Assembly: GCA_026387335.1 (NCBI GenBank)
Contig: JAPLLX010000004.1
Span: 189,485-253,484, forward strand
DNA: 64,000 nt
Direction: 5' to 3'
Source: Candidatus Omnitrophota bacterium
Lineage (GTDB): Bacteria > Omnitrophota > Gorgyraeia > Gygaellales > Profunditerraquicolaceae
The first letter of the stretch is position 1. Each line of letters opens with the position of its first letter. The translations under genes and the position numbers were made by a program. The notes under the pieces were generated by a model. It was not told the origin of the DNA. It was given only the letters and a program-made list of their open reading frames with translations, and searched no databases. Positions 3,001-20,199 of this stretch are shown in pieces.

Positions 3001-6000
3001 CGCAGGAGGAACGCCAGGAACTGTTAATATCTTAGAAACATCAATCTGCTGGCCGGCATTAATGTGATCCATCGCGCTATAGGACTGATTTGCGCCTTTA
3101 ACCTGTCTCCAAGTTTCAATTGCCCGGCCTTTTTCACCCCATAATTTCATGCCTGATTTGCCAAAATACTCTAATACTATATGGCCCCAGGTATCGCCTT
3201 TTCCTACGGTAAGAATATTATTCGCTGCGGTAGCGGCAAATGACTGGATAGGAAGAACTAGAGAGACAAATAGGAAAATTCCGGCTGTAAGATATGCGTT
3301 GCTTATATTAGAAAGGATGTTTTTAATATTTACTGCAGAGCTCGAGCTAAGAATAACTGTTGGAGGAGCAAGGCCACTGACTCTCTTTCTATCTTCACTA
3401 ATAATATTCAACCAATCTACTATTCCGTAAGCTTCGCTTGCTCCATTTGTGAGGTTAAAATTCGCAGCTTCCGGCCCTTCACCAAAGCCACCCTTACCTT
3501 TACCTGTACCTTTTGGACCAGCAGCTGCTCCGCCATTACCTGCCGCAGCACCAGTTCCAGTTCCACCCTGCGCTGATCCGCCGCCGCTGGAACCATTTAG
3601 CTCTTGAATATAACCAATGACACCAGAAACCTCATCCATTTCTTCTTTCTTAATTTCTCTAATATCTTTGTCATCTAAATTATTTTCTTTCTTATAATTT
3701 TCTACTGCAGAAACGTTGTTCCAATGAATTATGCTCACAATTTTTCCATTGTAAAGAGCTACGCTTTCTATAGAAACCGGTCTTGTCTCGGTAACTTCTC
3801 CTTTATTATTATATTCTGTAACCATCAAATCTCCATTGGCGTATTTCCCTCTAACAAGAAAAGCATGTCCACTTTGAACAACTATAAGATTCAAGTTACC
3901 CAGGGTATTAGAATCCATAGACTCTATAATCTTTGGAGATAATAAATAATACTGCAATCTACCTTTTGCAATCTGGTTTAATTCGTTCAATAATAAACCT
4001 CTTCCTAGCTTTCTTTCCGCCTCTTCTATTTCTGCTGCCAATACAGAATCTACGGTATAAAAACTTCCAGGTAAACAATCGGCTGGTTGAATACCTCTCT
4101 TTCCTTCTGCTATTCTCAAACGGCCATCAAAACCTTGAATAATACCTTCTACTGCGCGAAGAACGCTTTTATCTCCGTCATCGATTGCTTTCCTTAAATT
4201 TACAATTTCCTCCCCCTGGTCATTTACCTTAGTACTTAATCCCCTTACTTCTTCTTTTACTACACCTTGCATCTTAGAGAAAAATCCTGCTAACTCTTCT
4301 TTCGCTTTCTTATGAGTTCTTTCATTATTCTCTTCTAGTTCTTGTATTTCCTTGCGCACAATCTTCTGCACTGCTGCTACTATATTCCCGTTTGCAATTC
4401 CATTAAATAATTCGCGGATTATTTCTTCCGACAGGCCTTCTTGTAATTCCGGATGTAACTGCGCGGTTTTCACATAATTAGCAATAATACTTAAACCTAT
4501 TACGTATCTATTCGTTATATCTTCATCAGTAATGCTGTTCACTGTTGTATCCTCGAAATATGAATCATTAAACCATCTCATTAATACTGCTTTCAAGTGT
4601 GGGATATTATCTTCTACGTTCATAATTCCCTTAACCGCTGACCTTATTAAGCCATACATTTCACTTCTCGCTTTTTCAAAGTCGCGATCCTGTATTGCTC
4701 TAAGAACCGTGCCATAGGCGGTTGGGTCTTTTTGCCTTAAACCTTCCAGCATCATACGGTCATCCTTGTTATTGCGGAAATAATCCTGGCCTAACAAGCG
4801 ATTTAATAACTTAATTGCTTTTTCTAAATCTGTTATTGTACTATTATTTGCGGGAGAAGATGAGGTTTTGGTGGGAATTCCAGAGACAAAAACGCCGCTA
4901 TTGAGCGGACTTGAGGTTGCACGAATCGAACCACTGGTTTCTTTATTTGCACTCTGGGAACCTGCCAAACTCTTAAATTCATTTGCTTCAATTACGCCTA
5001 ATTTATACGCTCTGATGTCCTTGACACCAACAAACTTTGAGTCAGAGTTCGTCGGTGAGCTGGCAGGCGGCGCAACGCCGGTTCCGGTTCCAACAACTGG
5101 ATTAGGAGTAGCAATCGTATTGAATTGTATGACTTTACCGGCATAGAGTAGGCTTGCCGGGCTTAAATCTAAGGCTGTTAAGGCTCTGGTAACCGAACTG
5201 GAAGCGCCTACACCGCTAACCACAGTTCCAGCCACTGGCAAAGGCATTGGTGACCGCCTTTCTAAAGGCGAAGTAGTCTGATCTGGCTTCTGTCCACCCA
5301 ACATTCTTGCTACAGCCCCAAATAATCTATTTACAATCTTACCTATATACTCTAATGCCGCGCCGGTTTCTGCAATCGACGAAGAGACAATCCTTGCGCC
5401 GGTTAAAGCGCTCAATGCGCCGGCTAATATCTGCACTTTGGCATTAGGGCCGCTAATTGAACTTGATCCACCGGTATTATCGTTCACTGCGGCCTTCTCT
5501 TCCACTGGAGCAGCCGTATCCATCTGTTTCTTCATCTTTTCCAATAAATCATTCAGCTTTAAGTCTACTAGTGATTTTTCTTCAGTAACATCAGAATGAA
5601 TCTTGCCCAACAACTCACCTTTCTTAAATAGTTCTGTAATGTCATTTAAAACCTTATCCACTGTCTGCTCTGTCTTTAGAACTTTATTGGCATGCCCGGT
5701 AAATCCACCAAGGGTTGTGGATTCTGTCGCTAATAAATTCTGTCTTTCTGTATCTTCGGCAGAATTTAAAGAATTAATGAGGGCACGCATACTTAAGAAA
5801 CGCGTTAATCCTTCATTAACGCCTAACTCTGAAATGCTAAAGTCTGATTCACTGAGCTCTCTATTTTCAAGGGTGCCCATTTCGGCAAGCAAATTAGCGT
5901 AATTCTGTTGAGCTGTAACAGTGGCTTCCGCATCAATATCCCTACCGTTAGGGCTTAAAATAACGATATTACTGGGATTACTACCAATATTCTTTACGGC

Positions 6001-9000
6001 GATATGGAATGCCTCATGCGCGCCTCTGCCGAAATTATAATGGCCAGCGAGATTCAACCTAATAGAAAGCTTACCTTGGGCATCTTTCGTAATAACAAAA
6101 TTATCTACGCTATCAGCTTTTATTGTGTAATTCTTTTCTCCTACCGAAGGTTCATATACTTGGGCGCTTGTATTCTTAGTTTTATCCGGCCCACGCAAAA
6201 ATCCGGAAGGACCTATTTCAACCTGAACACCTTCATATCCCTTATCCTTGCCGTACCAATTGCTTCCCATTTCTTTTTCTACAGCAGTGCTTCCTTGTGC
6301 CTTAAATTCCTGCTCAGCAATAAAGGTTTGGGCTGGCTGTAATGCCCTAAAAACAAGATAGAGCGAAGCATCGTCAGTTAACCCGTTAAGTATTTTGAGG
6401 GAATTGTCTAAGCGGGCATCATCAGGATTCGCAGATTGAATATTATTAATGAATTCTAAGGCCTGCTGGCGGGTAAACAAGCTTGAACCATTGCCTAAAA
6501 GCCGGCTGGCTATATCCGGGCCTAATAAACGGAAGAATGCATTTTCATGCTCTTGAGGATTGATTAATATATCCTCAAATTTCACATTCTCCTGGCCTTG
6601 GGATGTTCTTTGAGCAACCAAAGCATTTTCAGCATCATTGAACCTTAAGCCGTACTCAAATTGAGGATTAATACCCAACTTTCTAAGCCCTGTATGAATA
6701 TCCTTACTATTAACTAAATTTTTGTTTTTGAGAGTCTCAACGACCAACGCATATTGAACAGTCTTACCTGAAGTACTGTTTAAAAGTTCACGGAAAGCGG
6801 CCGCGACATTTTCTATTTCTTTCGGTGGAAGGCCTAAACGCTGCGCTTCCTGCTGGGGATTATCAACAAAACGTCTTAATACGTCGCGCTTAACAACGCC
6901 CTGAGTCTGCATAAATGTATTCATTAAATCTGCTGCCTGACGGGTTGCCGCGTTTGTAGAGGTGGCAAATAACTGTCCGCGGGCCAAAGGATCAGAATTC
7001 AAGAATAAGTAGTCGGCTATGCTTAATCTCCCTAAAACCTTAGAAGATATCCCTGAAAGATTCAATTGCCTATAAGCTTCAACCTGTGTAGGCCCAAGCG
7101 GTAAAACTAACGGCATTAAATCTATTAAAGACTGCGTTTTGCCCATAGCCACAGCTACCTGCTGAAGGCCGCCCATGGTCCGCTTGTCTTTAAATATACT
7201 GCTATGGCGCTGGGCATTAAATTTAATCAACGCGCTTTCCAAAGAGCTATTGCCTTTTTGCAGATTGCGTGTTAAGAATTCTACGGGATTATCCAAGCCA
7301 AGCTGTAATCTCTCCACCTCTGTGGGTGTAAAAGCTGTGCCGGCTAATTTATCCGCAGCAAGCGAAGTTAATGTAGCAACTCTTACTATAGAATCTACCC
7401 CGCGATAAGGATTAGAAACATCAATATAACCTCTCTGGGCTAAATTTACAGCAAGATCGAATGATTGTTCAGGGGTGATCAATATGTCGGCTTCCGGCAA
7501 TGCTAATTCCGGTAAACCAATGCGATTTAAGAATACATTCACTTCTTTGCGTTCTCTTTCATCCCAAAGCTGCACTGTTTGCATAGCGAGATTAAGACCG
7601 CCTCTTCCAACCATATACCCGCCGCGCACAAACAAGGCTTGTGTCTCAGCAGGAAGATTATTGAACTTTTCCGCTAAAGCAGGCTGCCCCTTGGCAAAAT
7701 TCTCAAAAGTCACAGGGCCAAGTTCTTCGCTGGGTACGGCGGAAGGAACCCCTCTCTTTTCTCCGCGAACAGTAACTCCATACTCCATGTTAGCCGACGT
7801 AAATTTAGGATAATCCTTTCCTGTAAATTCTTTTGCAAAAATAGCTCTAACCTGTTCGGGAGTCAATTGTTTATAGGCTGGTTTACCCTCATATTCATTT
7901 TTTAACTCTGCGCGTAAGGCTTTTTCTATCTTTGAATACGCATCGCGAAAAAGAATAAATTCATCAACAATAGCCTTGGCTTTCATTTCCTGCGCAGTCT
8001 TTGGTTTTTCAGGATACAGTTCCCTTAAATCTCCCTGCCCCCATTGATCACGCAGGAATTTCATACCATGATCTCTTTCGGTATCCAAATGCTCAACAGT
8101 CAAATCTGCCTGTCCGCGGACATTTTGTAACTGGCGCACAGAATCATTGCCTTGTTCTAATCTATTTACTTGGGCAATTTTCTCCATTGCCTTTGGCCCA
8201 AGCAAAGAGCCAAGCAATAAATTAATCTTGAATTTCGCGTCCCTGATTAAATCTCTTTCTTTATGAAGAAGATCTTGTTTATCCGCCTGGTCTTGATTTT
8301 TACCAAAAAGCTTTTCTAATTCTTTTACGCCTTCCAGGCTCTTAACATCTACACCGCTTAAGTCGCGAACAATAAGAACACGGTCAACTGAATCAAAATC
8401 AGAACCGGAAACAGGCCTTAACCTGCGAGAACCCTGAAAAATCGGCAAAAGCTCGCTCTTGGAATCAGCAATAGCAACTAATACAGCCTTATCGGAAACG
8501 CCGTTTATATCAATACCGTATGTATTAGGACGGGATATTAATACTTTAACACCCTTTCCGGACGCAATTTGTTCTGTTACATATTCAATCGGGCTATTGT
8601 TTCTGCCGCTATTTTTAATTACTTCTGAAACTGGCTTTGCGTCCTTTAATTCTCTACCGACTTCTACCATTTGCCAAATTCCGCGCTGATCAAGAATAAA
8701 ACGGGTGTTATCTTTATAAAACGCGCTAAAATCTCCTATGGAAAGCTGAGAATCACCATGCTGCTCGCTCTTCTGCGTATCTACATAGATAGTTACATCT
8801 TTACCTTTATTAGATGTCTCTTTGCTGCCTAACTCAAAAATTGCGTTATTATTAACGTTATTCACCCCGACTACATTTAAATTTGCATCAAGGATTGGCT
8901 TACTCACTTCACCTACTGAATCCATGCCAAAAACTATTCTCATCGTATCCTTCTGCCGATCGGTCATTGCTCCGGCAAAAAGTACAGTAGCTACCGCGCC

Positions 9001-12000
9001 CATTTTTTCTGCTGTATCCAACATCTTCGCGAAAGAAACCATGGCATGGCCAGCTCCCTGAATCTCAACTTGTTCGTAATTAAGAGGAATTTCGACATTC
9101 TCTGGTCTTGATGTATCACGTACCCTGGCATTATGAATCACAACATCGGCAATAGCCTGTAAGCTGTTGGCAACGCGTAAATCATGCGCGCGGCCGCTGG
9201 GATTAAGCGGGATTATAACCCACTTATTACGTTCGGCATCAAAAGCAGTAAGTTTATCTAAGCCGGTAACTTCTGCTCTGGCCACCATAGACGCTTTCAA
9301 CGCAGCTACGAGACGCTCTCCTTCAGGAGTTTTCCTCAGTGCATCTAAATCCAATCTTTCTTGCTCTAATTTTTCTCCCGCGCTATACCTTAAAAATGCT
9401 TCGATTAACGCATCGTTACCGGCAGGATCAACTATAGTTTCTCCGTCTTTATCTCTGCTGCGGGTAATCTCGTATTTATCATCTAAACTTTTTAAGGAAA
9501 GTTCGCCATTAAGTGTTTCTGTTAAGAACTTGTGCGCCCTTTCAACTAAGGCTTTTTGAGAATCAAATTCTTCTTTGCTTATTTTGTCAAATCCATCGCT
9601 AATTTGAAGAGAAGGATTATCCAAATAATCCGTATTGGTAAGCACCGCTTTATCTAATAATTCTGTCAGGGCTTTATCGTGCGCGGATAATTGCTCTCTG
9701 GGCATTTCACGTAAACCCATTAGATACTGTAAATCGTGTTCGGATACAATAACCGCACTTTTATCCGCAAAATTTATAGCCGGTTGGTCGCTATCTTTAA
9801 CTCTCCAGCGGACTATACGGTCTGCATCTACAATTGATTTCGCGAAAGCATTTCCTTTCTCGGCTGCCCTTCTTACATCACCCATAGTTTTATCGTAAAC
9901 CTGATCAGCATGTGTATCGCTTTGCTCAACAACAACTAACATTTTTGCTTTAGGACCATAGGTACCGTTTTGTATAAGCCCTAACTCGGCAATAATACCG
10001 GCGGTACTCTTGCCTGCTGAAGGAGGAGCAAAAATTGATAAGACTAAAGGTTTAACAGAACCAGCGACATAGCGGGCTCCCAAAACCATTTTTTCAAGCA
10101 TATTAGCCTGATCTTTATCCTTAACTCCTCCATATATATTTATTACCGGGTCTGCAGCTACATTATAATAATCTGACTTTATGCGCGTTTCCGCAGCCCG
10201 CTTAATTTCAGGAGTAACTTCAAAACTATTAACCCTTCTGCCCAAGAAACCATCTCTATAAAATACCTTGCTACCTTCTTTAGCATAAGCAACCTGTCCT
10301 ACAATAAGAGAGTCAATCTTCCCTGTAGCTGTAACTTCTGCAGCTTTATCTACCGGAATTATACGCTCTGAGGCGCCTGGTTTCATCCAATCAGGACGAA
10401 CATTTGACTTAGCCTCTTCCGGAGAAATTATAGTAGCGCGGCCGCGCTTAGTGAGCATCTCTGTTATTCCGCCAAAAATAGAACGCTCGTTTTTACTCAT
10501 TACAGGCGCAGCTGCAGGAACCCTAAAGAATCCTGCCCACTGTATAAACTCACTTTCAGGTGTACTGAATACGGCGCGGTCTTTAGGTGTTAAACCATTA
10601 CCATCAATTAAATTGCTTAAGGAGGCTAAAGAATATTTACCTGTATTACCAAAATAATTTACGGATTCTTTTAATCCAGTAACTACGCCGGGCATAAAAA
10701 CGCCTAAAGACCACGCATGATTTAAGGTTTCATTGGAGAACGGCTTTTGAATACTTAACGCTGCATTCTCACTTATCGAAAGTTTTTCAGAAGCCCTTGT
10801 TTGTAGAATACCTATCGCGGGAGCCATCCAGACACCAGAACGCGGGCCATAAACAAAACTGGATAATAATTCTGTCTGTCCTTGCTTAGAAGAGAATAAA
10901 TCTACATACTCACCTTTTACAATATTATTACTCGCATCTCTCTTCTCTATGGCAAACCAGGGCACGGATGGTTTCCCGTCTATGGCATGCTCCATATTAA
11001 CAAGGGCGCCACGCCATAAAGCGCCACTGACAGTAAATGACGGGCTAACATATAACCATGTTAAAGCGCCTCTGACAGAAGAATTAAATAACTTGGTCGG
11101 AACGGAATACAGAGCCTGTAAAGAAAAATCGCGTTCAGCCATATACCCGGCTCTTGAGGTAGGAGAAAATATATTCTTGGTTGTTCCCAGATAAGAAGCA
11201 GCTAACGTGCCAATTGCCGCTCCACCAAAGACACTTGCTACGGCCTGTCCAAAAGTATAATTATTTCCAGACCTATACGCGTCTAAAGAATCATGGGTAA
11301 GCTTAATCCCTGCTCCGGTAATAGCCCCATACTCTGCCCTCGCCAAATTTAAACCTGCTGGCGTAGCAGCGGGAAGACCTTTTATTCCTAACCCGATCAG
11401 GCCTCCGGTAAGCACATTAACCCAAGTATAGCTACTCTGAATATTATCTAAGAGATAACCTTCCCCAGACATTGTTTTTAGCCCAGTGGAAAGTAACGGT
11501 AGGCTGACTGCTCCTAAGGCAAAAGAGGTACCATAACGGACTATACTGCTTTCAGTATTAATTCTAAGCGCTGTACTCAAATTATTAATAGTATTTTTTA
11601 TAATTCCGCCATTAGCTACTAACGCGCCTGCGCCAGTCAAAGCTAAACCAAACGCAGCGCCATCACGCAAACCTTCTCCGTAGATACCAAGCCCTTCTCC
11701 AAAACTTAATGCCCTTGCCGTACCGGTTTCATTTAATCCCACAAGATTACCAATAACAGCAGTAGTTAGATTTATCTGGCCCCATAGAGGAGCTTGAGTT
11801 CCCATCGCATATCCAACCTTGGCTAAAAATGGACTGGCCAAAGTAGCCCCTTCGACAATCAAAGATGAGAGAACCTTTGACGCTACAGGAGTAGCTAATC
11901 CAGCAATGGCAAGCAAAGCATTTGTTTCTCGCGGTAGAAATTCACCAGTTGTGCACAGAGAAACAACGTTTGGTACTACTAAGGTAACTACTTCGGAAAT

Positions 12001-15000
12001 CGTATATGGATTTGCTAATAAATTTATAGCGGCTTTCCCTGCTTGACTCTCAACTCCAAATCTTGCGGCTAAACGCGAACCTAAAGAAGGGGCAATTTCT
12101 TTTGCTGTAGCTACTACACCTCTCCCTAAAGAACCTACTGGATAACCCAACATAGCCCAGAATAATGCATCCTTTGCCAGATCTCCCCCGGATGCCTGTA
12201 TCTCGCCGTTAAGCAACTGGTCTCTTTGTTTAATAAGGTTATCGGCTTTCTCCCATAAACGGTTTCTCCAATAATTTGGTTCTGCCCCTAGCCATTCATT
12301 CGGTTTATCTATAAGATAAGCTAAAGGCGCGCCTAATATATCTATCATTGCAGCATACCCGCTGGAGCCCGCTTTAAGATAATTCTTAATTTTACCCTCA
12401 GAGGTATCCTCTAGGGGAATTGAAATTCCGGCAATACTAAGCTTACCTTTAAATTCTTCTCCTTCAATGGCTTTATTGAGATTGTTGATAGCGGTATTTA
12501 ATTTTTCTCCATTCACACCGGGATCAAACCTGGAATCGCCTGTATCATTATGAATTTTTGTGATTCGTTGTAGCACTGCGCTTCTTTGCGCGTCACTATG
12601 CTGTTGATAAATATCCGCTACCCATTTTTCAAAACCTGCAAAATTAGAAGGTAAGGTAGCTATTTTACCCGAACGATAATCATCAACCCATTGATTCCAA
12701 CCCAATTTTTTAGCATTTTCTTGATAATACTCAGAATAGGATGTAGTATTTTCTTTGTCTGTTTTATTTAAAGCGTCAACGCGGGTTAATAATTCGGCTT
12801 TCTTAATAACTGCCTTTTGTTCATCATTAAGCTTACCCTTAACATAAACTTCTTCAGTTAATCCTGCTTTTTCAGCTTCTGCTTTATTAAACCCCTTAAG
12901 CTGGCTGATATCGTAAAACCCAATTTTCTTAGAATAAGTGCGCATATACTCAGCCAGGCCTGTTTTGCTGTTCAAATCAGCTATATCTGATTTAATTTCA
13001 TCTTCTGTTGCCCATCCTTTATTTACCAGGTCTTGCATAAAGGCTATCCTTACTTTATCATCCTGGGGACGAGCCTTAAAATTAAGGAAGGCGTCAATTG
13101 CAATCGCGCTATTCAAAAGTTTGCTTGTGCCATTAAAATCTTCTTTATCAAGCGATTTCCGCGCTTTCTCTAAAAGGCCTTTAATTTTTTCGTCTTTTTT
13201 AGTCTCGTTTGATTTTTCTAATTCCTTCAGCGGCTTCTCTAAATTCTCCCTCATTTCCTTCTTTGTAACAAATTTCTCTTTGCCATCCTCCTTCGTAAAA
13301 TAAACTTCTTCACTAGTCTTTAACGAATAGTTCTTTTGGCTCATCTCATTCTTAGAAGGCTGGCCGTTAGGAAAATCAATCGTTCCCGAAGCCTTAGTGG
13401 ATTGAAGATAAGTTATACTGGCTACTCCTTTTTTCTCATCCGTGCTTAAAGACCAGGGCATCTTAAATCCCTTAGGAGCGGCATAAGCTAAACCTTCAGC
13501 CTGAGTAATAACCTTGTATTGCACATCGCCGTTAATACCCACGCCCAACATTACCGGAACGGAACTCTCTTCAGAAGGAAGAATAACTGCCCCTAATCTA
13601 TCTTTGACTTTTACCACCTGGGTTTCGCCTTTTTCGCCCAAGACAAAATATTTATCTTTATTCAGCGCGGCATCGGTTTTCTGACCCCAAATGCCATCTG
13701 TTTTTACTTTTAAGTCCGCCTGTAATTTCTCTACCGCTGTTTTATACAGCGGATCTTTATCGCCTTTTATAACAGCGGCTTTATCTAAATAACCTTTCTC
13801 CTTTAAAATACCTACCTTATCCTTAAAGGCTTTATCAGCTGTTGACCCTTCCATACCTTCATTCATAAACGGCAAGGCCTTAATTAAAAGAGCTGGGCGC
13901 GCTATGCCGTCTTCCTTATTCACCAGCAGCTCTTGGCCGATAATCGGCGATGTGCCTACCCCTGCTTTTCCTCCGTCTTTCACATTAGTCAAAGCCCAGA
14001 TAACTTGATGCCTGTCCTGCAATTCAGAATCAAATAAAATCTTATCTTTCGGAGTAACCCAATTCCATACGCCGGCCTTATCCTTTTCCTGAACCGCGTA
14101 ATTAGCGAAAGATGAAACGATATGCAGAACGCCGGCTTTGCTGCCTACTCCATTAATAATAATTCTATCTTTATTCTTGGTATCTATTTTGCTACCCGGC
14201 TCAGAATCTTTCAGGTAAGGTTTGGCGAGAAAAGTTTCGGTGAGTTGGCCAACGCCTTCAATTTCACCATTTGCCTTAAAGGAAATCTCCGCCTCTTTTT
14301 GATTATAGTTAGCGCCTATCCAATGAAGGTTTACATGGCTAATCTTGCCGTCCGGGCCTAAATTTATTGCCACATTACGAAGCAGACTCATACCATCAGG
14401 GAAATCTAAACCCGCGACTATAACTCTCCCCTTAGAAACATCTACATTATCGTAAATGACTACTTTACTTGCAGGGTCAATAAGGTTATATTTCTTGGTT
14501 TTTTGGTCTTGCACTAATTTATAAACGCCTTCATATGTCTCCACAGTCTTATCTTTATTAATCTCATAGGATTTGGAGGTCCTGGCGCCGCTATACTTTA
14601 TCCCCTGCGCTTCGGTAACCAGGTCAAATTTAAATTTATCCTCCTTATCAAAATCCATACCCGTCAATATTCCGCTTTTACTAAAATATACCGGGCCGGT
14701 TGGATTTTGCTGATAACGTTCATGATCTATTTCATAAGTAAAGTCTCTGGATAATTTAGGGAGAGACTCGGAATTATTTTGAACTCTTAGTTCGTTTTTA
14801 CTGTCATCCCAGGGAACAGAAATAATATCTTTTCCCGCCTGATCCTTAGCCACAGTTACTTTAACCTTTTTCTCCTTATCATTATCATTAATAAGGTAGC
14901 TCTCTTTTACTCCGTCTTTAGTTGATTCTTGTAATTTCCAACCTTCTAGAGGACCATTTTTCTCATATAAAGAAGCGCTATTCTCAAGGCCACGGGATAG

Positions 15001-18000
15001 TGAAGGATTAACTGCGCCGGAAAAAACTAAAGGAGCTGGACCGCCCCAATGCTGGATAGGCCTGATATTAAATTCTTTGCTCGTTGCAGCGTCTGTTCCC
15101 TTGAACGCTAACTGGCCGACTAAAGGTGAGTTGCCTTTTAAAACTACTTCGGAGGTATCTTTACCTGTTTGCCTGGCTACTTCCCAATCAAGACTATGCC
15201 CCTTTTGCACAGCATTCCCAAAGATTACCTCATCGGGAATTTCATTTCCGATTCTATACGCAGCCCAAGAACTTATAATATAGCTAACGCCGTTACTGAG
15301 AAACTCTTTAAGTTTTTCGGCTGAGTTTATATTCTTGATTTCCCCTATTAGTTTAGCCTGAAGCCGGGAGTCTTTTATCTTCCCGCCTTTTGCATCAGTA
15401 AACTCTCCTTTTTCTGCTGCTTCTATTAATACAGTCTTACCTGTTTCAAAATCTTTGTCTATCTTCTTTATTAACTCCGGGTTAAAGTATAATCTTTCTG
15501 TTATTTTCTCCTTGAGATATGTTTCCGAAAGCGTACTATCATTTACGCCAATTGTAAGAATACCTTTATTCTCTTTGTCGCCTCCCGGCCTTATGCCTAA
15601 AGAATTAAAAGTAATGCTTCCGTCTTTATGCACAGAGTAAGAAGTAACCAGGCGCGTATTCCTATCTCCTTCTGCAATCGGAGTATTATCGCCTTTTGAG
15701 TTATCTCGGACCATCTCAAATCCGTTTTCTCCCGACCATTTTGCTCCTTTGGCAAAATTAAGGCTGCTTAAATCCAACCCTACAATATTACCATTCTGGT
15801 GATCAATGTTGGCCACCCAGCCGCCAAAACCCCTGGCAGTAGTCATGGGTATTTTGTTAGAATCTTGAAAAGAACCTGCTCTTGTTAACGCTACCATATC
15901 AGTCTGCGGAGATTCTTTCCCCTCGCCGCCGGCTTTGGGCGTTGGTATAATTAAGTCTCCGTTTACAAGCAAAACAGGGTTGCCGCCAAACTCACCTAAG
16001 TCATAAATAGTGCCTTTTGTCTTTGCAACTATTGATTTATTATCAAACAGTGCGCTGAGAACGTCTTGCTTAGGGACTGGAGTCATAAGAGATTCGCCAC
16101 CTAGTTTACTTTCTAGAAAGTTATCAGCAGGCTTAGAAGACATAATTTCCTGTCTATAACGCTGCTCATATTCTCCCCGGGCATAAGAAAGCTTGGCATC
16201 AAAAGTCTGCTTGCCAAGCACATCAAAGGTGTATAGATAATCTAACTGTCTTAATGTAAGGTCGTTCTCAACGCCGTTTACATCTTTAATTTTTTCAAAC
16301 TTCTTGGTGTCGCCGGGATTAATTATTTCTTTTATAAAAGCTCCGTCGCCGTAAAAATTACCGTCGCCAATGGTAATCTCTCCGGATTGTTCTTTTCGAT
16401 GTCCCAGATACGTGCTGCTATCAAAACGCACGCCCGTATATTTGTCGGCGTAATAAGCCTGGCCTTTTATATTGTCTTTACCCCTAATTGCAAATTCCGG
16501 CACTTTCCATTGAGCGCCCTTGGCATAGTTTAAAGAATTAGGATCTAAACTTAACTGGCCGTCTTTATTATGCACCAAAACCCCTACGGTCCCGGTCATC
16601 TTGTTAACTTCGGCTGACGCGGATTCAACATTCACTACCACACCAGACCCAGGCCCATAAAGGCTCTTAGCATAATCTAAGAATGGCGATCCTGCGTTCT
16701 TTACAACCCAAGTTAACCACTTTTCTGTTTCAGTTGCTTCAACACCCGCCGCCGGCCCAGAATTTTGTAGAGATGTTTTAAATTTTTTGGCCCTATCAAG
16801 ATAATCAGCAGCAGGATAGCTATCTTCCGACAGCTTTTTATTTCCTGCTTGATCTCGGGGTTTAGAATTGGCATTAGTATTATAAGCACTAGTCTCTGGA
16901 AGCAGCAGCTTTAAGCTAACGCTCTCATCGATATTAGAGCTAATGGATATATTCTTCTTTATGAAATCCTTATTTGCTTGTGAGTCATATTTATTAGAAA
17001 GCGGGTTACCGTTAAATTCACTGCGATACCCTGAAACATACTCCACAATATCCTTTTCGTTAAAATATTGATATAAGCCTGTATCTCCCCATAAAACTGC
17101 CGGAACCATCTTGATGTTAATAGTAGAAGTAATGCCTGATTCCTTAGCCTTGATTACCGTAGGAAAGAAGGTCGGATAGATTATGTCCCTGCCTAAGCCG
17201 ACCAGGTTATTTACTGAGGCAAAATGCAAGGTAGACTTGGCGTAATTAACTAAAGAATAAGAGGCGGAAGGTAAAAGCGAGCTGAGGTTCCCATCATCAA
17301 TGAACTTACCCCAGTCAGTATAACCTTTTTGTTTCATTAAATAATCGGCATTGGCTTTGAAATCAGAGGTTCCGGCAAGCTGGGCAATCTTTTCTATATA
17401 TTGAATTTCAGACCAGCCGCCTGCGCCTTTGGTGTATACCGGAGAGGTGCCGCCTAAAGAAACATAATTGGTGGCGAATTCTTCAAATCGCTTATTAAAT
17501 AATCTTCCTGCATACCCTGCCCAAGATTTTTCGCCTAATTCTGCAGTTGATTTATTCGCAGCGATAATTGTGCCGGCTGCAGAATAAAGAGTGGCTGTTC
17601 CTAACCAGTTAACCCCCTCCATTTGTAATCGGGTCAGGCCCCATTTATTCTTATCTGTAACTTTATCAAAATCTCCGCCTAAAGCATTCAGCCCGGCTGA
17701 AACGCCGCCGGATAGAAGGCCGTTAAAAGCCGCTTGATCCCAAGTCAGTTTGTTGGCATTTGCTCCGGCTATGCCTCCTAAGGGCTCGCCTAATAAACGG
17801 CTATAATTAGGATGTTTCTTAAGCTCGCTGCCAAACACTCCCTGAGAAGCAGCATATTCAACAGCCAAACCTACGCCCTGAGAGATTAAAGAACCTTTCA
17901 TATCCTGTAGGGCATATAGAGCGCCCTGATAAGCTGTCGAAGGAGCCACGTAGGCGGAAGATTTTCCTCCTTCTTGAATAATATTTCCGGATATATTCTT

Positions 18001-19551
18001 TGTCACATCCATACCACCATCTCTGTAACTACCAAACGCGTAATAATGCGTCTCCGTCTTTATATTACTAATATCGTCAGGCCCGTTTTCATCTATTAAT
18101 GTTGCTACTTCTCTCGGTGTTACTTCAGTCTTGGCTTGATGTCCCATATCGAAAACAGTGCCAGAGGCAGCACCCATTGCGATGCCAAACGCTTCATAAC
18201 CTATAACGTTCCCGGCGAGATTAGCAAACTGCCGGCCAACATAAGGATTATTCTTAAATAAACTGGTATCTTTCAGCGCCTCATAGGCAAATACGCTGGC
18301 GCCGGCTTTGGCAGCGCCTAAAAGTGTTCCTCTTAAGGCACCCATCCCAATTGTAGAAAGAGTACTGTTTGGCTGGTAATAAGCAGTGGTTGCTCCGGAT
18401 AAGGCGGCGATTGTCACAGTACTTAATATTCCGGCGGAAGTAGGATCCATCCCGAAGTTCTGCACTGCTACGTTAGTCGCTGCCTGGGCAATTTGGCTAT
18501 AGAGCATTGCCTGGCCAAAAGAAGTAACTCCTTTACTTAATGCCTCGCCAGCACTAAGAGCAGATGCTGTTCCGGCTACTGAGAAATAGGAGTAGGCGGC
18601 TGGTATGGCGACAGAAGCAACCGTAATCCCTAACCCCAGCCACATATCCCCGTCAGAAGGTTCTTTAAATAAAGCAGAGACATCGGCATAGCCTTGCTTG
18701 TTGGATCTGGCGCCTAAGACTTGTTTGGCTTCGGCATCAGTCAAAGGGACAGTCCCCTGCGGGGACAGTCCCTGTATTAAGGCATAACCGGAAAAATCTT
18801 TAAGGAATTTCTCTATTGGCAGGAATTCTTCTTTATGTTCATCTAAGAAGTAAATTTTTTCACCGCTAATTTTAGTGATTAAAACATAGTGGTCGCCGTT
18901 TAGGTGAGCAATGAAAGGAGTTAAATCTGCGGATAACTCGGATAACTTAACCGGGTAAAGTTTAAGGCCGAAAAACTCTGAAGCTTTGGATAAGGCGTAA
19001 AGGGAATTTTTAATAACTTTGGGATTACCTTCCGGCTTGACTACGTCATTTAAGATATCTATGGTTAAGGCAAAAACCGCGATATCCTGCTCTTCTACCT
19101 TAACCCCTTTATAGCTTAAGTAGTCATAAAGCGACTTGGTACCGCATGGTTTACACACCAGCCAGTTAAACAACTCATCTATCCTCTGATTGGACATTTT
19201 CAGTGGTTTATCCAGGGTTATGGTCAGATTCTCTGAAACTTTTATAGCAGTTATGGGTTTATTGGCTATATCTTTGAGGATACTTTTTACTGCCTGAGGA
19301 ATGTTAAGATTTTGGACATTTTTAAGGTAATTTGGGGCAAATACGTTGTTGGAAGGAAGGCCAATAGCGGGTTTATTCCAGATTACGCGCCAGTCATATT
19401 CTACTGCCTGAGCTGCCTGTTCAGGCAAGAAGACTACGGCAACAACAAAAGCTGCCACGCGGATCCAAGGCTTAAAACTGGAGTGGAACTTTTCCTTGGC
19501 CGCTTCTTTGGTAACTGCCTTGTCTTCTATATTGGCTCTTGGCTTTATCAT
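1..19551 (-). CDS. Giant multi-domain membrane/surface protein, 5' part of the gene in window (start ATG about 19549-19551; ORF continues past position 1; at least 6,516 aa in window). Domains seen: N-terminal signal anchor + C39-like Cys peptidase, multi-TM Gly/Ala block, P-loop kinase-like domain, second papain-like segment, Gly-rich linker, LysM between TM helices, K/E-rich charged region, further TM helices
   Basis: Manual reverse-complement translation in the phase whose + triplets start at positions congruent to 1 mod 3. No TTA/CTA/TCA (minus-strand stops) were found across lines 1-1620 or in spot checks at 7.0, 9.7-10.2, 12.0, 15.0, 17.5 and 18.7-19.55 kb, while in-frame + strand TAA/TGA/TAG are frequent, the signature of antisense. 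The ORF track lists no minus ORF of 60 aa or more between 1505 and 19551, consistent with one ORF lacking an in-window stop. N-terminus reads MIKPRANIEDKAVTKEAAKEKFHSSFKPWIRVAAFVVAVVFLPEQAAQA... then ...NWLVCKPCGTKSLYDYLSYKGV...TPFIAHLNGDHYVLITKISGEKIYFLDE (C39-like Cys/His pattern). Confidence 0.85.
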   Translation of the reverse strand, partial: MIKPRANIEDKAVTKEAAKEKFHSSFKPWIRVAAFVVAVVFLPEQAAQAVEYDWRVIWNKPAIGLPSNNVFAPNYLKNVQNLNIPQAVKSILKDIANKPITAIKVSENLTITLDKPLKMSNQRIDELFNWLVCKPCGTKSLYDYLSYKGVKVEEQDIAVFALTIDILNDVVKPEGNPKVIKNSLYALSKASEFFGLKLYPVKLSELSADLTPFIAHLNGDHYVLITKISGEKIYFLDEHKEEFLPIEKFLKDFSGYALIQGLSPQGTVPLTDAEAKQVLGARSNKQGYADVSALFKEPSDGDMWLGLGITVASVAIPAAYSYFSVAGTASALSAGEALSKGVTSFGQAMLYSQIAQAATNVAVQNFGMDPTSAGILSTVTIAALSGATTAYYQPNSTLSTIGMGALRGTLLGAAKAGASVFAYEALKDTSLFKNNPYVGRQFANLAGNVIGYEAFGIAMGAASGTVFDMGHQAKTEVTPREVATLIDENGPDDISNIKTETHYYAFGSYRDGGMDVTKNISGNIIQEGGKSSAYVAPSTAYQGALYALQDMKGSLISQGVGLAVEYAASQGVFGSELKKHPNYSRLLGEPLGGIAGANANKLTWDQAAFNGLLSGGVSAGLNALGGDFDKVTDKNKWGLTRLQMEGVNWLGTATLYSAAGTIIAANKSTAELGEKSWAGYAGRLFNKRFEEFATNYVSLGGTSPVYTKGAGGWSEIQYIEKIAQLAGTSDFKANADYLMKQKGYTDWGKFIDDGNLSSLLPSASYSLVNYAKSTLHFASVNNLVGLGRDIIYPTFFPTVIKAKESGITSTINIKMVPAVLWGDTGLYQYFNEKDIVEYVSGYRSEFNGNPLSNKYDSQANKDFIKKNISISSNIDESVSLKLLLPETSAYNTNANSKPRDQAGNKKLSEDSYPAADYLDRAKKFKTSLQNSGPAAGVEATETEKWLTWVVKNAGSPFLDYAKSLYGPGSGVVVNVESASAEVNKMTGTVGVLVHNKDGQLSLDPNSLNYAKGAQWKVPEFAIRGKDNIKGQAYYADKYTGVRFDSSTYLGHRKEQSGEITIGDGNFYGDGAFIKEIINPGDTKKFEKIKDVNGVENDLTLRQLDYLYTFDVLGKQTFDAKLSYARGEYEQRYRQEIMSSKPADNFLESKLGGESLMTPVPKQDVLSALFDNKSIVAKTKGTIYDLGEFGGNPVLLVNGDLIIPTPKAGGEGKESPQTDMVALTRAGSFQDSNKIPMTTARGFGGWVANIDHQNGNIVGLDLSSLNFAKGAKWSGENGFEMVRDNSKGDNTPIAEGDRNTRLVTSYSVHKDGSITFNSLGIRPGGDKENKGILTIGVNDSTLSETYLKEKITERLYFNPELIKKIDKDFETGKTVLIEAAEKGEFTDAKGGKIKDSRLQAKLIGEIKNINSAEKLKEFLSNGVSYIISSWAAYRIGNEIPDEVIFGNAVQKGHSLDWEVARQTGKDTSEVVLKGNSPLVGQLAFKGTDAATSKEFNIRPIQHWGGPAPLVFSGAVNPSLSRGLENSASLYEKNGPLEGWKLQESTKDGVKESYLINDNDKEKKVKVTVAKDQAGKDIISVPWDDSKNELRVQNNSESLPKLSRDFTYEIDHERYQQNPTGPVYFSKSGILTGMDFDKEDKFKFDLVTEAQGIKYSGARTSKSYEINKDKTVETYEGVYKLVQDQKTKKYNLIDPASKVVIYDNVDVSKGRVIVAGLDFPDGMSLLRNVAINLGPDGKISHVNLHWIGANYNQKEAEISFKANGEIEGVGQLTETFLAKPYLKDSEPGSKIDTKNKDRIIINGVGSKAGVLHIVSSFANYAVQEKDKAGVWNWVTPKDKILFDSELQDRHQVIWALTNVKDGGKAGVGTSPIIGQELLVNKEDGIARPALLIKALPFMNEGMEGSTADKAFKDKVGILKEKGYLDKAAVIKGDKDPLYKTAVEKLQADLKVKTDGIWGQKTDAALNKDKYFVLGEKGETQVVKVKDRLGAVILPSEESSVPVMLGVGINGDVQYKVITQAEGLAYAAPKGFKMPWSLSTDEKKGVASITYLQSTKASGTIDFPNGQPSKNEMSQKNYSLKTSEEVYFTKEDGKEKFVTKKEMRENLEKPLKELEKSNETKKDEKIKGLLEKARKSLDKEDFNGTSKLLNSAIAIDAFLNFKARPQDDKVRIAFMQDLVNKGWATEDEIKSDIADLNSKTGLAEYMRTYSKKIGFYDISQLKGFNKAEAEKAGLTEEVYVKGKLNDEQKAVIKKAELLTRVDALNKTDKENTTSYSEYYQENAKKLGWNQWVDDYRSGKIATLPSNFAGFEKWVADIYQQHSDAQRSAVLQRITKIHNDTGDSRFDPGVNGEKLNTAINNLNKAIEGEEFKGKLSIAGISIPLEDTSEGKIKNYLKAGSSGYAAMIDILGAPLAYLIDKPNEWLGAEPNYWRNRLWEKADNLIKQRDQLLNGEIQASGGDLAKDALFWAMLGYPVGSLGRGVVATAKEIAPSLGSRLAARFGVESQAGKAAINLLANPYTISEVVTLVVPNVVSLCTTGEFLPRETNALLAIAGLATPVASKVLSSLIVEGATLASPFLAKVGYAMGTQAPLWGQINLTTAVIGNLVGLNETGTARALSFGEGLGIYGEGLRDGAAFGLALTGAGALVANGGIIKNTINNLSTALRINTESSIVRYGTSFALGAVSLPLLSTGLKTMSGEGYLLDNIQSSYTWVNVLTGGLIGLGIKGLPAATPAGLNLARAEYGAITGAGIKLTHDSLDAYRSGNNYTFGQAVASVFGGAAIGTLAASYLGTTKNIFSPTSRAGYMAERDFSLQALYSVPTKLFNSSVRGALTWLYVSPSFTVSGALWRGALVNMEHAIDGKPSVPWFAIEKRDASNNIVKGEYVDLFSSKQGQTELLSSFVYGPRSGVWMAPAIGILQTRASEKLSISENAALSIQKPFSNETLNHAWSLGVFMPGVVTGLKESVNYFGNTGKYSLASLSNLIDGNGLTPKDRAVFSTPESEFIQWAGFFRVPAAAPVMSKNERSIFGGITEMLTKRGRATIISPEEAKSNVRPDWMKPGASERIIPVDKAAEVTATGKIDSLIVGQVAYAKEGSKVFYRDGFLGRRVNSFEVTPEIKRAAETRIKSDYYNVAADPVINIYGGVKDKDQANMLEKMVLGARYVAGSVKPLVLSIFAPPSAGKSTAGIIAELGLIQNGTYGPKAKMLVVVEQSDTHADQVYDKTMGDVRRAAEKGNAFAKSIVDADRIVRWRVKDSDQPAINFADKSAVIVSEHDLQYLMGLREMPREQLSAHDKALTELLDKAVLTNTDYLDNPSLQISDGFDKISKEEFDSQKALVERAHKFLTETLNGELSLKSLDDKYEITRSRDKDGETIVDPAGNDALIEAFLRYSAGEKLEQERLDLDALRKTPEGERLVAALKASMVARAEVTGLDKLTAFDAERNKWVIIPLNPSGRAHDLRVANSLQAIADVVIHNARVRDTSRPENVEIPLNYEQVEIQGAGHAMVSFAKMLDTAEKMGAVATVLFAGAMTDRQKDTMRIVFGMDSVGEVSKPILDANLNVVGVNNVNNNAIFELGSKETSNKGKDVTIYVDTQKSEQHGDSQLSIGDFSAFYKDNTRFILDQRGIWQMVEVGRELKDAKPVSEVIKNSGRNNSPIEYVTEQIASGKGVKVLISRPNTYGIDINGVSDKAVLVAIADSKSELLPIFQGSRRLRPVSGSDFDSVDRVLIVRDLSGVDVKSLEGVKELEKLFGKNQDQADKQDLLHKERDLIRDAKFKINLLLGSLLGPKAMEKIAQVNRLEQGNDSVRQLQNVRGQADLTVEHLDTERDHGMKFLRDQWGQGDLRELYPEKPKTAQEMKAKAIVDEFILFRDAYSKIEKALRAELKNEYEGKPAYKQLTPEQVRAIFAKEFTGKDYPKFTSANMEYGVTVRGEKRGVPSAVPSEELGPVTFENFAKGQPALAEKFNNLPAETQALFVRGGYMVGRGGLNLAMQTVQLWDERERKEVNVFLNRIGLPELALPEADILITPEQSFDLAVNLAQRGYIDVSNPYRGVDSIVRVATLTSLAADKLAGTAFTPTEVERLQLGLDNPVEFLTRNLQKGNSSLESALIKFNAQRHSSIFKDKRTMGGLQQVAVAMGKTQSLIDLMPLVLPLGPTQVEAYRQLNLSGISSKVLGRLSIADYLFLNSDPLARGQLFATSTNAATRQAADLMNTFMQTQGVVKRDVLRRFVDNPQQEAQRLGLPPKEIENVAAAFRELLNSTSGKTVQYALVVETLKNKNLVNSKDIHTGLRKLGINPQFEYGLRFNDAENALVAQRTSQGQENVKFEDILINPQEHENAFFRLLGPDIASRLLGNGSSLFTRQQALEFINNIQSANPDDARLDNSLKILNGLTDDASLYLVFRALQPAQTFIAEQEFKAQGSTAVEKEMGSNWYGKDKGYEGVQVEIGPSGFLRGPDKTKNTSAQVYEPSVGEKNYTIKADSVDNFVITKDAQGKLSIRLNLAGHYNFGRGAHEAFHIAVKNIGSNPSNIVILSPNGRDIDAEATVTAQQNYANLLAEMGTLENRELSESDFSISELGVNEGLTRFLSMRALINSLNSAEDTERQNLLATESTTLGGFTGHANKVLKTEQTVDKVLNDITELFKKGELLGKIHSDVTEEKSLVDLKLNDLLEKMKKQMDTAAPVEEKAAVNDNTGGSSSISGPNAKVQILAGALSALTGARIVSSSIAETGAALEYIGKIVNRLFGAVARMLGGQKPDQTTSPLERRSPMPLPVAGTVVSGVGASSSVTRALTALDLSPASLLYAGKVIQFNTIATPNPVVGTGTGVAPPASSPTNSDSKFVGVKDIRAYKLGVIEANEFKSLAGSQSANKETSGSIRATSSPLNSGVFVSGIPTKTSSSPANNSTITDLEKAIKLLNRLLGQDYFRNNKDDRMMLEGLRQKDPTAYGTVLRAIQDRDFEKARSEMYGLIRSAVKGIMNVEDNIPHLKAVLMRWFNDSYFEDTTVNSITDEDITNRYVIGLSIIANYVKTAQLHPELQEGLSEEIIRELFNGIANGNIVAAVQKIVRKEIQELEENNERTHKKAKEELAGFFSKMQGVVKEEVRGLSTKVNDQGEEIVNLRKAIDDGDKSVLRAVEGIIQGFDGRLRIAEGKRGIQPADCLPGSFYTVDSVLAAEIEEAERKLGRGLLLNELNQIAKGRLQYYLLSPKIIESMDSNTLGNLNLIVVQSGHAFLVRGKYANGDLMVTEYNNKGEVTETRPVSIESVALYNGKIVSIIHWNNVSAVENYKKENNLDDKDIREIKKEEMDEVSGVIGYIQELNGSSGGGSAQGGTGTGAAAGNGGAAAGPKGTGKGKGGFGEGPEAANFNLTNGASEAYGIVDWLNIISEDRKRVSGLAPPTVILSSSSAVNIKNILSNISNAYLTAGIFLFVSLVLPIQSFAATAANNILTVGKGDTWGHIVLEYFGKSGMKLWGEKGRAIETWRQVKGANQSYSAMDHINAGQQIDVSKILTVPGVPPAPQAPKGEESILSKILDYFTTNPKMIWAIAIVAIIILGLIAVKIYLNHRAEKVRKAAEEAAKLATQQEAERKAAEERDRLAKETVTKKVTEDAKKTPEAADKANVEGIKDEKIVDEKGHVSAKDNAGVQAEVTAENKQDPVNATASKDLFSTANDLLILGNSEYDAEEYFKALATYQKVEGILIKYSLEVKDQLTNAVISEESKAALIKQALELNNKLYEIEVKIAGCSSKITSEATNFANQINPGKANGGSSPVRELPVSANIPIETVTVSSSPINKLVTTSFLGTLRNILEKGRSYFRLEASITAQPKETGVGVTNLSLAPPLARIAASVSNFLIQMYRVIIGGGKNGKPNVEISGRNEKDRIRVFEGRISRSSLKSYSNELRGQGHYRTETPSLRLLEARFVKPVSNHAKGYNGLSPPCAALIAILLNSAVVISLLLVLSFTNSDINNLINLTRPLAFSVAGELAAYVVVNGGAGALLQGLTPLVAAITTIIEGGVPCVLSMLMILGLITLLTSPRTTLLLPQLVRTPAVISGSSSLTMLWELSTRATAVPIVGRRSSALRASSSVSRLAMQGDVFPSTKSTARTTKNRDGSVREPSLTVGSSPVFSSPIKKSSKTYWLKIVTVVALLVISAFTAIYHIHGRHERIQPTIEALRKADPAIFTKEDKVFKDFKSLVKYLMEIARVNRNLELGADYCYLGKDGWHLKIGAIGEEDGVVIKNIPGSILLHFHTSNGELSLEDLYSTLNRQSIIVSPDEVLVFKDEHKEKHNKFRGIFERAGNQAEALRRGKKVSEEKYLGKFMDLLKEHTSEEDHNGIYQDIFVQAGGEYLETIENIRVALGLKIIKFTWTSSSPAASSSVNVTYNSQGRLVKYASGEAITETIDGIEVITITKQASEVLAETARIKKNLEEFDFLGITKLSAEARKAEASKALGLEPDASKKTIKTMYRGLARLFHSDTSPVKVDGIYIQTLNSIKETLEESSSSSANKALDMAILNIIE

Positions 19552-19715
19552 TTTATTTTTATATTACTATATACATAAAATGCAAAATAAAAGTTCCCCT
19601 TTACCCCATTACTCTTTTTAGCTTGCGAGTGAGAGTCTTTCATATTTTGTTTTATAAAGCGTTTGTAAAATCCCTTACTAAGCTTCTAAAAAGAAAAACC
19701 GAACTGTCAAATTTC

Positions 19716-19825
19716 CGTCGGTAATTCGGCAGCCCGGCTATCCTTTGATAGGCACTATTTTTGTTTCTTTGGGACCCGCGGCTTTGCGCCCCCGGATTTC
19801 TCCGGGTTTGCCATTTCGTTACTTA
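19716..19825 (-). ncRNA. c-di-GMP-I (GEMM-I) riboswitch aptamer in the 5' leader of the giant gene
   Basis: Minus-strand sequence ...AAAUGGCAAACC-CGGA-GAAA-UCCG-GGGGCGCAAAGCC-GCGGGUCCC...GGAUAGCCGGGCUGCCGAAUUACCGACGG matches the hallmark GEMM-I elements as I recall them from V. cholerae Vc2: GGCAAACC, a P1b hairpin with GAAA tetraloop, GGGACGCAAAGCC, and the 3' ...GUUACCGAUGG closing segment. A U-rich tract (UUUUUCUUUUU, + coords about 19690-19705) follows as a possible expression platform. Confidence 0.7.
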
Positions 19826-19841
19826 CCTCAACTACAAGCAG

Positions 19842-19869
19842 AGTATAACACATAGCTCGTCGCTGTCAA
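19842..19869 (-). promoter_or_regulatory. Sigma70-type promoter for the giant gene and riboswitch (-35 TTGACA, 16-nt spacer, -10 TATACT)
   Basis: Minus-strand read: TTGACAgcgacgagctatgtgtTATACT. + strand tgtcaa at 19864-19869 and agtata at 19842-19847. Predicted TSS about 19834, immediately upstream of the riboswitch. Confidence 0.55.
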
Positions 19870-20056
19870 GCTAAAAAAGGGCTTATTTTGGTACCGCTTT
19901 CAATATCAAAAACCGGCCTAATTATGGTTAAAAAAGTGGGCTAAAATCGCACTTTTTGAAGCGTACTTAATCCCTAAAAACGCGATTATTTTGCCATTTT
20001 AATGGCTCGTAATGACGAAAATGAGTAGTTTGCGCAACGCCACAAATATTAGTAAT

Positions 20057-20121
20057 TAGACTGGACATTTTTAGGTGATTCTCGATATAGAATGGACATT
20101 AGGAAGTACTAGATTGGACAA
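20057..20121 (+). repeat. Three direct repeats of TAGAnTGGACA(T/A)T with 30- and 22-bp spacing; candidate transcription-factor binding sites
   Basis: tagactggacattttt, tagaatggacattagg, tagattggacaatcta seen in sequence. A fourth copy, agattggacattt, lies at about 32896-32908 next to the promoter of the 31003..32883 gene. Confidence 0.5.
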
Positions 20122-20199
20122 TCTAATGAGATATAAATGCTCATTTATTTATGTTAGACTTTATGATTTATAACGTCAATTATAGTAGAAAGTAGATTA

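Follow-up and report, generated by a model that had tools for sequence, protein, structure and literature searches.

Riboswitches of the GEMM-I class, also named c-di-GMP-I after the second messenger cyclic di-guanosine monophosphate (c-di-GMP), have been described upstream of tfoY (VC1722) in Vibrio cholerae (the Vc2 RNA; Rfam family RF01051) and ahead of the cap gene in Bacillus thuringiensis (the Bc2 RNA). Here we describe an aptamer of this class in the leader of a giant gene of a Candidatus Omnitrophota bacterium. It lies on the minus strand of a 64,000-nucleotide stretch of DNA, hereafter the window (assembly GCA_026387335.1, contig JAPLLX010000004.1, positions 189,485 to 253,484). In Vc2, the residues G20, A47 and C92 contact c-di-GMP, C44 and G83 form a universal interhelical pair, and a G14-C93 pair is accompanied by a bulged A95 (PMC4744006, PMC3764141). 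In Bc2, c-di-GMP favours the anti-terminator, making this RNA a proven ON switch ahead of a collagen adhesion protein (PMC4933901).

The Omnitrophota RNA resembles both systems. It shares with Vc2 a two-hairpin fold closed by P1, the residues G20, A47, C92, C44-G83 and A48/A49, and a G14-C93-type top P1 pair followed by a bulged A. It differs from Vc2 in that J1/2 is one nucleotide shorter, position 43 is G, position 91 is G (as in the RF01051 consensus and an aptamer of Vibrio maritimus), and the second hairpin has a long, A-rich distal loop. In addition, the 11-nt tetraloop receptor is missing, the family loop is mostly GYRA, and a terminator overlapping the aptamer serves as expression platform. 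With Bc2/cap, it has in common a c-di-GMP-I aptamer followed by an intrinsic terminator. Bc2/cap controls a large exported attachment protein, whereas the gene in the window has at least 6516 codons, a C39-like N-terminus and no detected adhesin domain. Moreover, the host phylum is Omnitrophota, the terminator is longer and precedes about 135 nt of conserved leader with a small open reading frame (ORF), and the switch is a prediction from sequence, in contrast to the experimentally proven Bc2/cap. The architecture is also that of the adenine riboswitch of pbuE (ydhL) in Bacillus subtilis. That RNA is an ON switch whose terminator has a 5' arm built from aptamer 3' strands, so that the ligand-locked aptamer excludes the terminator; aptamer class and ligand differ. 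Finally, the candidates of Rfam family RF03167 share with the window RNA the same fold and the 3' segment GcUGCcg, and RF03167 is its best-scoring Rfam model. The distinguishing G47 of that model is A in the window RNA and in all relatives, and membership is therefore rejected on this feature.

On the evidence set out below, it is highly probable that a transcriptional ON switch with a canonical-pocket c-di-GMP-I riboswitch stands ahead of this Omnitrophota giant gene. The features of the leader are as follows.

19864..19869, minus strand: -35 hexamer TTGACA, invariant in the four closest leaders
19842..19850, minus strand: extended -10 element TGtTATACT (TATACT at 19847-19842), from the promoter scan
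19718..19825, minus strand: aptamer of the GEMM-I / c-di-GMP-I clan, P1 included, from the RF03167 match and model R1
19691..19745, minus strand: terminator hairpin with core arms 19739-19720 and 19716-19697, from RNAfold
19686..19698, minus strand: U-tract UUUUUCUUUUUAG, conserved among relatives
19548..19643, minus strand: small upstream ORF of 31 codons, MKDSHSQAKKSNGVKGNFYFAFYVYSNIKIK, whose stop TGA overlaps the giant-gene ATG as ATGA
19596..19607, minus strand: Shine-Dalgarno-like G-rich motif GGGGUAAAGGGG inside the small ORF, from leader conservation
1..19551, minus strand: giant gene with ATG at 19551, frame open to the window edge, at least 6516 codons, from the ORF

The entire window was searched on both strands with Rfam cmscan against 4227 families. 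The sole riboswitch match was a GEMM-I-clan aptamer at 19821-19724 (minus strand), assigned to RF03167 with 66.9 bits (gathering score 59; E 1.2e-13). A further family of clan CL00126 reached its own gathering score on the same stretch, with its name and score masked by clan competition; this family is very probably RF01051 (gathering score 35). Our own covariance model R1 scored 114.5 bits at 19825-19718 (minus strand). The match to a GEMM-I (c-di-GMP-I) aptamer is thus confirmed and far beyond chance. A preceding inspection of the DNA without database searches (the sequence-only reading) had proposed a GEMM-I riboswitch in the giant-gene leader, which is borne out by the Rfam match above the gathering score, the presence of G20/A47/C92 and C44-G83, and the covariation of the stems. 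It had named RF01051 (and RF01786) as the Rfam models to search with; membership of the clan held, through the RF03167 match, and the top Rfam label turned out to be RF03167 instead. The sequence elements that it had listed were all found on the minus strand. From about 19825 to 19718, the strand holds GGCAAACC (19812-19805), the GAAA-capped hairpin, GGGGCGCAAAGCC (3' end at 19780), the long second hairpin and GCUGCCGAAUUACC.

The aptamer can be divided into the following parts.

19817..19822, minus strand: P1 5' strand GUAA-CG, pairing with CG-(AA bulge)-UUAC at 19728-19721
19812..19816, minus strand: J1/2, AAAU plus G20 (19812), one nucleotide shorter than J1/2 of Vc2
19786..19811, minus strand: first hairpin, with G21-C46, C22-G45, stem CCCGGA/UCCGGG, GAAA tetraloop 19800-19797 and C44 (19788), from covariation
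19783..19785, minus strand: A47-A48-A49 (A47 = 19785), A47 being found in 81 of 81 relatives
19731..19783, minus strand: second hairpin AGCC-G-CGGGUC ... GAU-AG-CCG-GGCU with bulged A82/G83 (19739, 19738), from covariation
19729..19730, minus strand: G91 and C92 (C92 = 19729), RF01051 consensus at this site GcUgCCgaa
19721..19728, minus strand: P1 3' strand CG-AA-UUAC, from covariation

The top of P1 is formed by the pairs C19818-G19727 and G19817-C19728, next to the bulged AA, beyond which GUAA (19822-19819) pairs with UUAC (19724-19721). This layout of a CG pair, an AA bulge and an extension recurs in unrelated GEMM-I sequences, and the register agrees with both these and the family. An alternative register proposed by RNAfold, GGUAA (19827-19823) with UUACC, was rejected, as its 5' strand is not kept in relatives (GGCAA, GAACA). 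The Rfam alignment places P1 one nucleotide off because J1/2 is one nucleotide shorter here; within the family, J1/2 most often has four nucleotides plus G. The hairpin CCCGGA-GAAA-UCCGGG at 19806-19791 (minus strand) had been listed with its GAAA tetraloop in the sequence-only reading, and all six of its stem pairs prove to be compensated among relatives. The same reading had taken AUUACCGACGG (19725-19715) as the Vc2-like closing segment. This placement lies about 7 nt too far 3': the Vc2 segment GUUACCGAUGG corresponds to GCUGCCGAAUU at 19732-19722 (minus strand). The stretch AUUACCGACGG falls in distal P1 and in the inner portion of the terminator hairpin, and it was rejected as closing segment, being variable in relatives (AAUACCGACG, CCAAUAUCGACGAG) and engaged in that inner hairpin. 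The distal loop of the second hairpin is A-rich and variable, with 4-78 nt among relatives.

Relatives of the giant gene were used to examine the conservation of this structure. Residues 1-450 of the giant protein gave matches to dozens of partial proteins, almost all of which bear the name Omnitrophota or Omnitrophica. The same aptamer is present on three orthologous contigs, where it scores 60.8-64.6 bits to RF03167. Between these and the window, mean column identity of the leader is 83% (DNA), compared with 63-75% amino-acid identity of the protein; conservation of the leader is about equal to, or above, that of the protein downstream. Metagenome contigs were scanned with an alignment of the giant-protein N-terminus, which yielded 80 loci, and an aptamer covariance model built from 20 leaders was run on these. 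The aptamer was found ahead of 74 of the 80 homologous C39-type giant-gene N-termini, on the coding strand and mostly about 150-350 nt 5' of the matched coding region. Three of the six loci without it have less than 300 nt of upstream sequence. As an observation apart from this family, the single-amplified genome AM-312-C06 of Omnitrophota holds a GEMM-I aptamer of a different sequence type (locus L038, 5592-5682, plus strand; RF01051, 64.5 bits).

The sequence-only reading had proposed a covariation comparison with homologous leaders, and the stems do covary in 71 distinct ones. In the alignment of these sequences (A4, fitted to the model), 94.7% of the cells assigned to pairs hold standard pairs, compared with 80.6% in shuffles, and 15 pairs are changed on both sides against a shuffle mean of 10.0. 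The covariation score is 0.399, against 0.153 for shuffles and at most 0.084 for slid registers. The result is the same in a MAFFT alignment of 20 sequences made without fitting to the structure. In the first stem, compensatory changes occur at 6 of 6 pairs and 99.5% of cells form pairs; C22-G45 switches between C-G and U-A. P1 (helices 1 and 2) is paired in 77-88% of cells, with 6 of 6 pairs changed on both sides, and the second hairpin in 98.9%. The residues around the ligand site are close to invariant: A47 is present in 81 of 81 relatives, A48 and C92 each in 80 of 81, G20 and the G at position 91 each in 79 of 81, G83 in 70 of 70 and C44 in 69 of 70 (one gap). The tetraloop is GNRA in 68 of 70 (GYRA in 59, mostly GUAA; GAAA in the window).

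Directly 5' of the aptamer lies a sigma70-type promoter, TTGACA-16-TATACT, as the sequence-only reading had noted. The promoter scan found 11 of 12 consensus positions in its hexamers, together with the extended -10 TG, and transcription is predicted to start near 19835, given the usual spacing. Of 73 distinct leaders, 69 have such a promoter (TTGAC[AGT]-N15-19-TAnnnT) ahead of the aptamer.

The direction of the switch is predicted from the overlap of the aptamer with the terminator that follows it. The terminator draws its 5' arm from the aptamer, namely from the second-hairpin 3' strand, from G91 and C92, and from the 3' strand of P1. The hairpin reaches -23.2 kcal/mol in RNAfold (z = -4.3), none of 200 shuffled sequences being as stable, and UUUUUCUUUUU lies directly 3' of it. 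The U-tract that had been noticed just 3' of the aptamer (19698-19686) is the tail of this competing terminator. In the minimum free energy fold of the full leader, the first hairpin is retained, and the second-hairpin 3' strand, G91, C92 and P1 3' strand all pair with 19716-19697. This arrangement is common to the family. In 64 of 72 distinct leaders, a 10-nt window with a U-rich tail behind it matches the 10 nt up to and including position 91, forming pairs at no fewer than 8 of the 10 positions (mean 8.9 of 10, versus 2.9 in shuffled downstream sequence). The sequence of the inner terminator stem is free to vary among relatives with its pairing kept, and one of the two leaders with A91 (L142) carries a compensating U instead of C opposite A91 in the 3' arm. 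As aptamer and terminator share one strand, they are mutually exclusive; ligand binding can therefore only favour read-through, and an ON switch is predicted from these folds.

The proposed mechanism is as follows. The strong sigma70-type promoter would start the transcript near 19835, and its first ~110 nt would fold as the two-hairpin GEMM-I aptamer. In the absence of c-di-GMP, the second hairpin would give up its 3' strand, which together with G91, C92 and the 3' strand of P1 would pair with 19716-19697, and the resulting hairpin and U-tract would stop transcription near 19690. With c-di-GMP bound, G20 and C92 would read its two guanines, A47 would stack between them, and P1 and the second hairpin would be locked. 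The terminator would then not form, and RNA polymerase would read on into the leader and a gene of at least 19.5 kb.

Several points weigh against this interpretation. Ligand and switching are predictions from sequence and folding. The minimum free energy fold of the isolated aptamer is not GEMM-I-shaped (z = -0.7), which is usual for RNAs that depend on tertiary contacts. The RNA lacks the 11-nt tetraloop receptor that is part of the RF01051 model (CUAAG/UAUGA), and its J1/2 is one nucleotide shorter than in Vc2. The receptor-less form is reportedly the 'type 2' GEMM of Weinberg 2007, with which a GNRA loop lacking a receptor would be consistent. A simple terminator scan did not list the hairpin, because of internal mismatches in its stem, and listed two unrelated sites instead. 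RF01051 is at most a lower-ranked clan match with its own bit score masked, and the best Rfam label is the variant RF03167, whose ligand is, to our knowledge, not established. Finally, the sole GGDEF protein of the window has GGDDF, and a source of c-di-GMP is therefore not shown within the 64 kb.

The alternative that survives best, improbable as we consider it, is that the aptamer is real and its logic different, with either an OFF switch or control of translation or RNA stability alongside a constitutive attenuator. The direction is deduced solely from folding, and the 135-nt conserved leader with its small ORF between terminator and giant gene points to further layers of control. The Bc1 RNA of B. 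thuringiensis is an example of a long and dual GEMM-I expression platform (PMC11218506). Against this, the 5' arm of the terminator is built from aptamer 3' strands in 64 of 72 leaders, such that ligand can only disfavour the terminator. In addition, the leader folds contain no alternative hairpin that would set the U-tract behind the ligand-bound form, and the start codon of the giant gene lies about 145 nt from the aptamer.

It is slightly less likely still that the RNA is a true member of c-di-GMP-I-GGC (RF03167) with a ligand other than c-di-GMP. The candidates of this variant are said to originate from Weinberg et al. (2017, PNAS). In favour of membership, RF03167 is the family retained by cmscan (66.9 bits versus 59), and this is also the case for the three orthologous leaders (60.8-64.6 bits). 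The label 'GGC' presumably denotes positions 20, 47 and 92, which in the window are G20 = 19812, A47 = 19785 and C92 = 19729. The A47 position is the sole pocket site at which the two consensuses differ: RF03167 has G there (GACGCGAAgCc) and RF01051 has A (GACGCAAAgCc). The match line to RF03167 is blank at this site for the window RNA. The defining G47 of the variant is absent, with A found both at 19785 and in 81 of 81 relatives. Likewise, the 3' segment GCUGCCG (GUUACCG in Vc2) agrees with the RF01051 consensus GcUgCCgaa, so it is no mark of a variant. G91 was considered as such a mark and rejected: a pattern scan of species-representative genomes gave more than 120 aptamers with A47 and G91, from many phyla, among the matches listed, and G is the RF01051 consensus at this position. 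A pattern permitting G47 gave only two instances of it in 124 among the matches listed, both without GEMM stems.

The RF03167 label also falls on ordinary aptamers. Of 20 test loci, taken from the pattern scan and spread over many phyla, 13 hold A47 aptamers (14 in all) for which RF03167 is the winning family. These include an aptamer of V. maritimus upstream of a TfoX_N gene, which we take to be the Vc2/tfoY orthologue. At equal bit scores, E-values of RF03167 are below those of RF01051, and lack of the CUAAG/UAUGA receptor in the distal second hairpin probably pulls the RNA towards RF03167. Given that A47 is kept, the 3' segment is canonical, G91 is common and RF03167 captures ordinary aptamers, the label reads as a by-product of competition between related models rather than a feature of the pocket. 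By its residues, the pocket is the canonical G20/A47/C92 site, and c-di-GMP is the predicted ligand. As a separate observation, canonical-pocket (A47) aptamers labelled RF03167 by clan competition were noted at L055 (368-455, minus strand) and at 12 other loci. Annotations of 'c-di-GMP-I-GGC' should hence not be read as a variant ligand before position 47 has been checked.

We assign the same very low probability to sensing of 3',3'-cyclic GMP-AMP (cGAMP), or to cyclic-dinucleotide promiscuity, as in the GEMM-Ib RNAs of Geobacter. The fold is shared with GEMM-Ib, and cGAMP riboswitches are likewise ON switches with terminators. The change of specificity in GEMM-Ib is reportedly tied to A at position 20 (a result attributed to Kellenberger 2015 and Nelson 2015), whereas this position is G here (19812) and in 79 of 81 relatives. 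Riboswitches for cGAMP are rare variants concealed among GEMM-I sequences (PMC7266159). Chance resemblance or a decayed relic is of negligible probability and already refuted by conservation and covariation, that is, by the Rfam match at E = 1e-13, the 71 distinct homologous copies with compensatory changes and an invariant pocket, and a leader as conserved as, or more than, its protein.

The ~135 nt from the terminator to the start of the giant gene are also conserved. An ATG-initiated ORF of 13-47 codons (mean 29) spans the motif GGGGUAA(A)GGGG in 69 of 74 leaders, and a small ORF of at least 20 codons is found in 89% of leaders compared with 16% of shuffled ones. Its stop codon mostly falls -11 to +9 nt from the giant-gene ATG, with the ATGA overlap in 13 leaders, the window's included. 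Among leaders L124-L203, there is one (L139) in which the small ORF is fused in frame to the giant ORF. The G-rich motif is at least 90% conserved in 75 leaders and is read in two frames depending on subfamily, as GVRG or WGKG; conservation therefore concerns the motif as RNA and the open state of the frame rather than the peptide. Inspection by eye showed no obvious Shine-Dalgarno sequence just 5' of the giant-gene ATG. This configuration suggests that the small ORF is translationally coupled to the start of the giant gene. Structure between the G-rich motif and that start is modest and heterogeneous (mean z = -1.7, with two hairpin types). A further conserved element of the family, CUUAGUAA-N4-UUUUACAAA, was observed at 19660-19682 (minus strand), directly 3' of the U-tract.

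These features lead to a tentative proposal, which we regard as possible and rather doubtful, of a three-part leader for C39-type Omnitrophota giant genes. Promoter, GEMM-I ON switch and a translated ORF of about 29 codons with GGGGUAAGGGG would act in succession, c-di-GMP licensing transcription and the small ORF delivering ribosomes. Translation of the small ORF would hand ribosomes to the giant ORF and open structure at its start. If so, a message of more than 20 kb would have its translation coupled to transcription from the first codon onwards, and c-di-GMP would act as the master signal by which the largest bacterial proteins known are deployed.

The N-terminal 450 residues of the giant protein contain a C39-peptidase-like domain as well as a membrane anchor. 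C39 domains at the N-terminus have been described for Omnitrophota giant genes (bioRxiv 10.1101/2023.11.21.568195). No Pfam match was found in residues 1501-6516, and the terms 'adhesin' and 'surface protein' can therefore not be confirmed. Of the 'giant surface protein' in the sequence-only reading, the giant gene of at least 6516 codons stands, and the support for 'surface' is the N-terminal anchor. That reading had also tied the switch to a REC-GGDEF regulator and a Tad pilus locus in the window. Both are present. The Tad-type pilus genes encode TadE/G-like proteins, two T2SSF proteins, a T2SSE ATPase, a secretin and RcpC. The regulator (42249-43184, plus strand) belongs to an operon with FIST and histidine-kinase genes at 39528-43184 (plus strand). 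It has GGDDF instead of GG[DE]EF and matches the first 98 of 161 profile positions, which leaves its cyclase activity uncertain. Its gene lies 20 kb from the riboswitch on the opposite strand, and the links of the riboswitch to the regulator and to the Tad genes are circumstantial.

Further features of the window were recorded. Two genes of the Tad locus are unusual fusions by their domain matches.

35575-37233, minus strand: secretin with C-terminal TonB_C domain
33411-35570, minus strand: T2SSE (CpaF/TadA-like) ATPase with N-terminal ParA/MinD-like domain

An OprB porin gene lies directly 5' of the leader in the window and two orthologous contigs. In the window, about 760 nt between this gene and the promoter (19870-20635) contain no ORF of 100 amino acids or more. 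A gene for an IS200-type Y1 transposase lies 5' of the giant-gene leader in L001 and L003; in L001, it separates the leader from an OprB fragment. The region from the Tad genes to the porin contains a 139-aa ORF of the Fic/DOC family (21836-22255, minus strand), preceded by an abutting 93-aa ORF (22255-22536, minus strand); the two are a possible toxin-antitoxin pair. A LAGLIDADG-like domain occurs in a 344-aa ORF (59554-60588, minus strand), which is separated by a 218-aa ORF from a nearby UvrD-type helicase gene (61273-63204). Rfam identified three tRNA genes, at 46928-46999, 43252-43332 and 39400-39474, all on the minus strand.

Both the class of riboswitch and its ON mechanism are already known; their systematic place ahead of Omnitrophota giant genes is a new association. 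No mention of riboswitches or c-di-GMP was found in those papers on the giant genes that were searched, and literature searches that paired Omnitrophota with either term returned nothing relevant. For riboswitch specialists, the aptamer itself is ordinary, and the lesson is that many canonical-pocket aptamers are labelled 'c-di-GMP-I-GGC' by Rfam clan competition. The prediction is testable in vitro on a 110-nt RNA and requires no culture. In addition, the aptamer provides a simple sequence marker for the 5' ends of fragmented giant genes in metagenomes. Among predicted bacterial proteins, those of the Omnitrophota giant genes are some of the largest, and the organisms are uncultivated. Because high c-di-GMP signals a sessile or attached state, a c-di-GMP ON switch ahead of at least 74 of them would be a concrete regulatory input, and it suggests that the giant proteins are made only when c-di-GMP is high.

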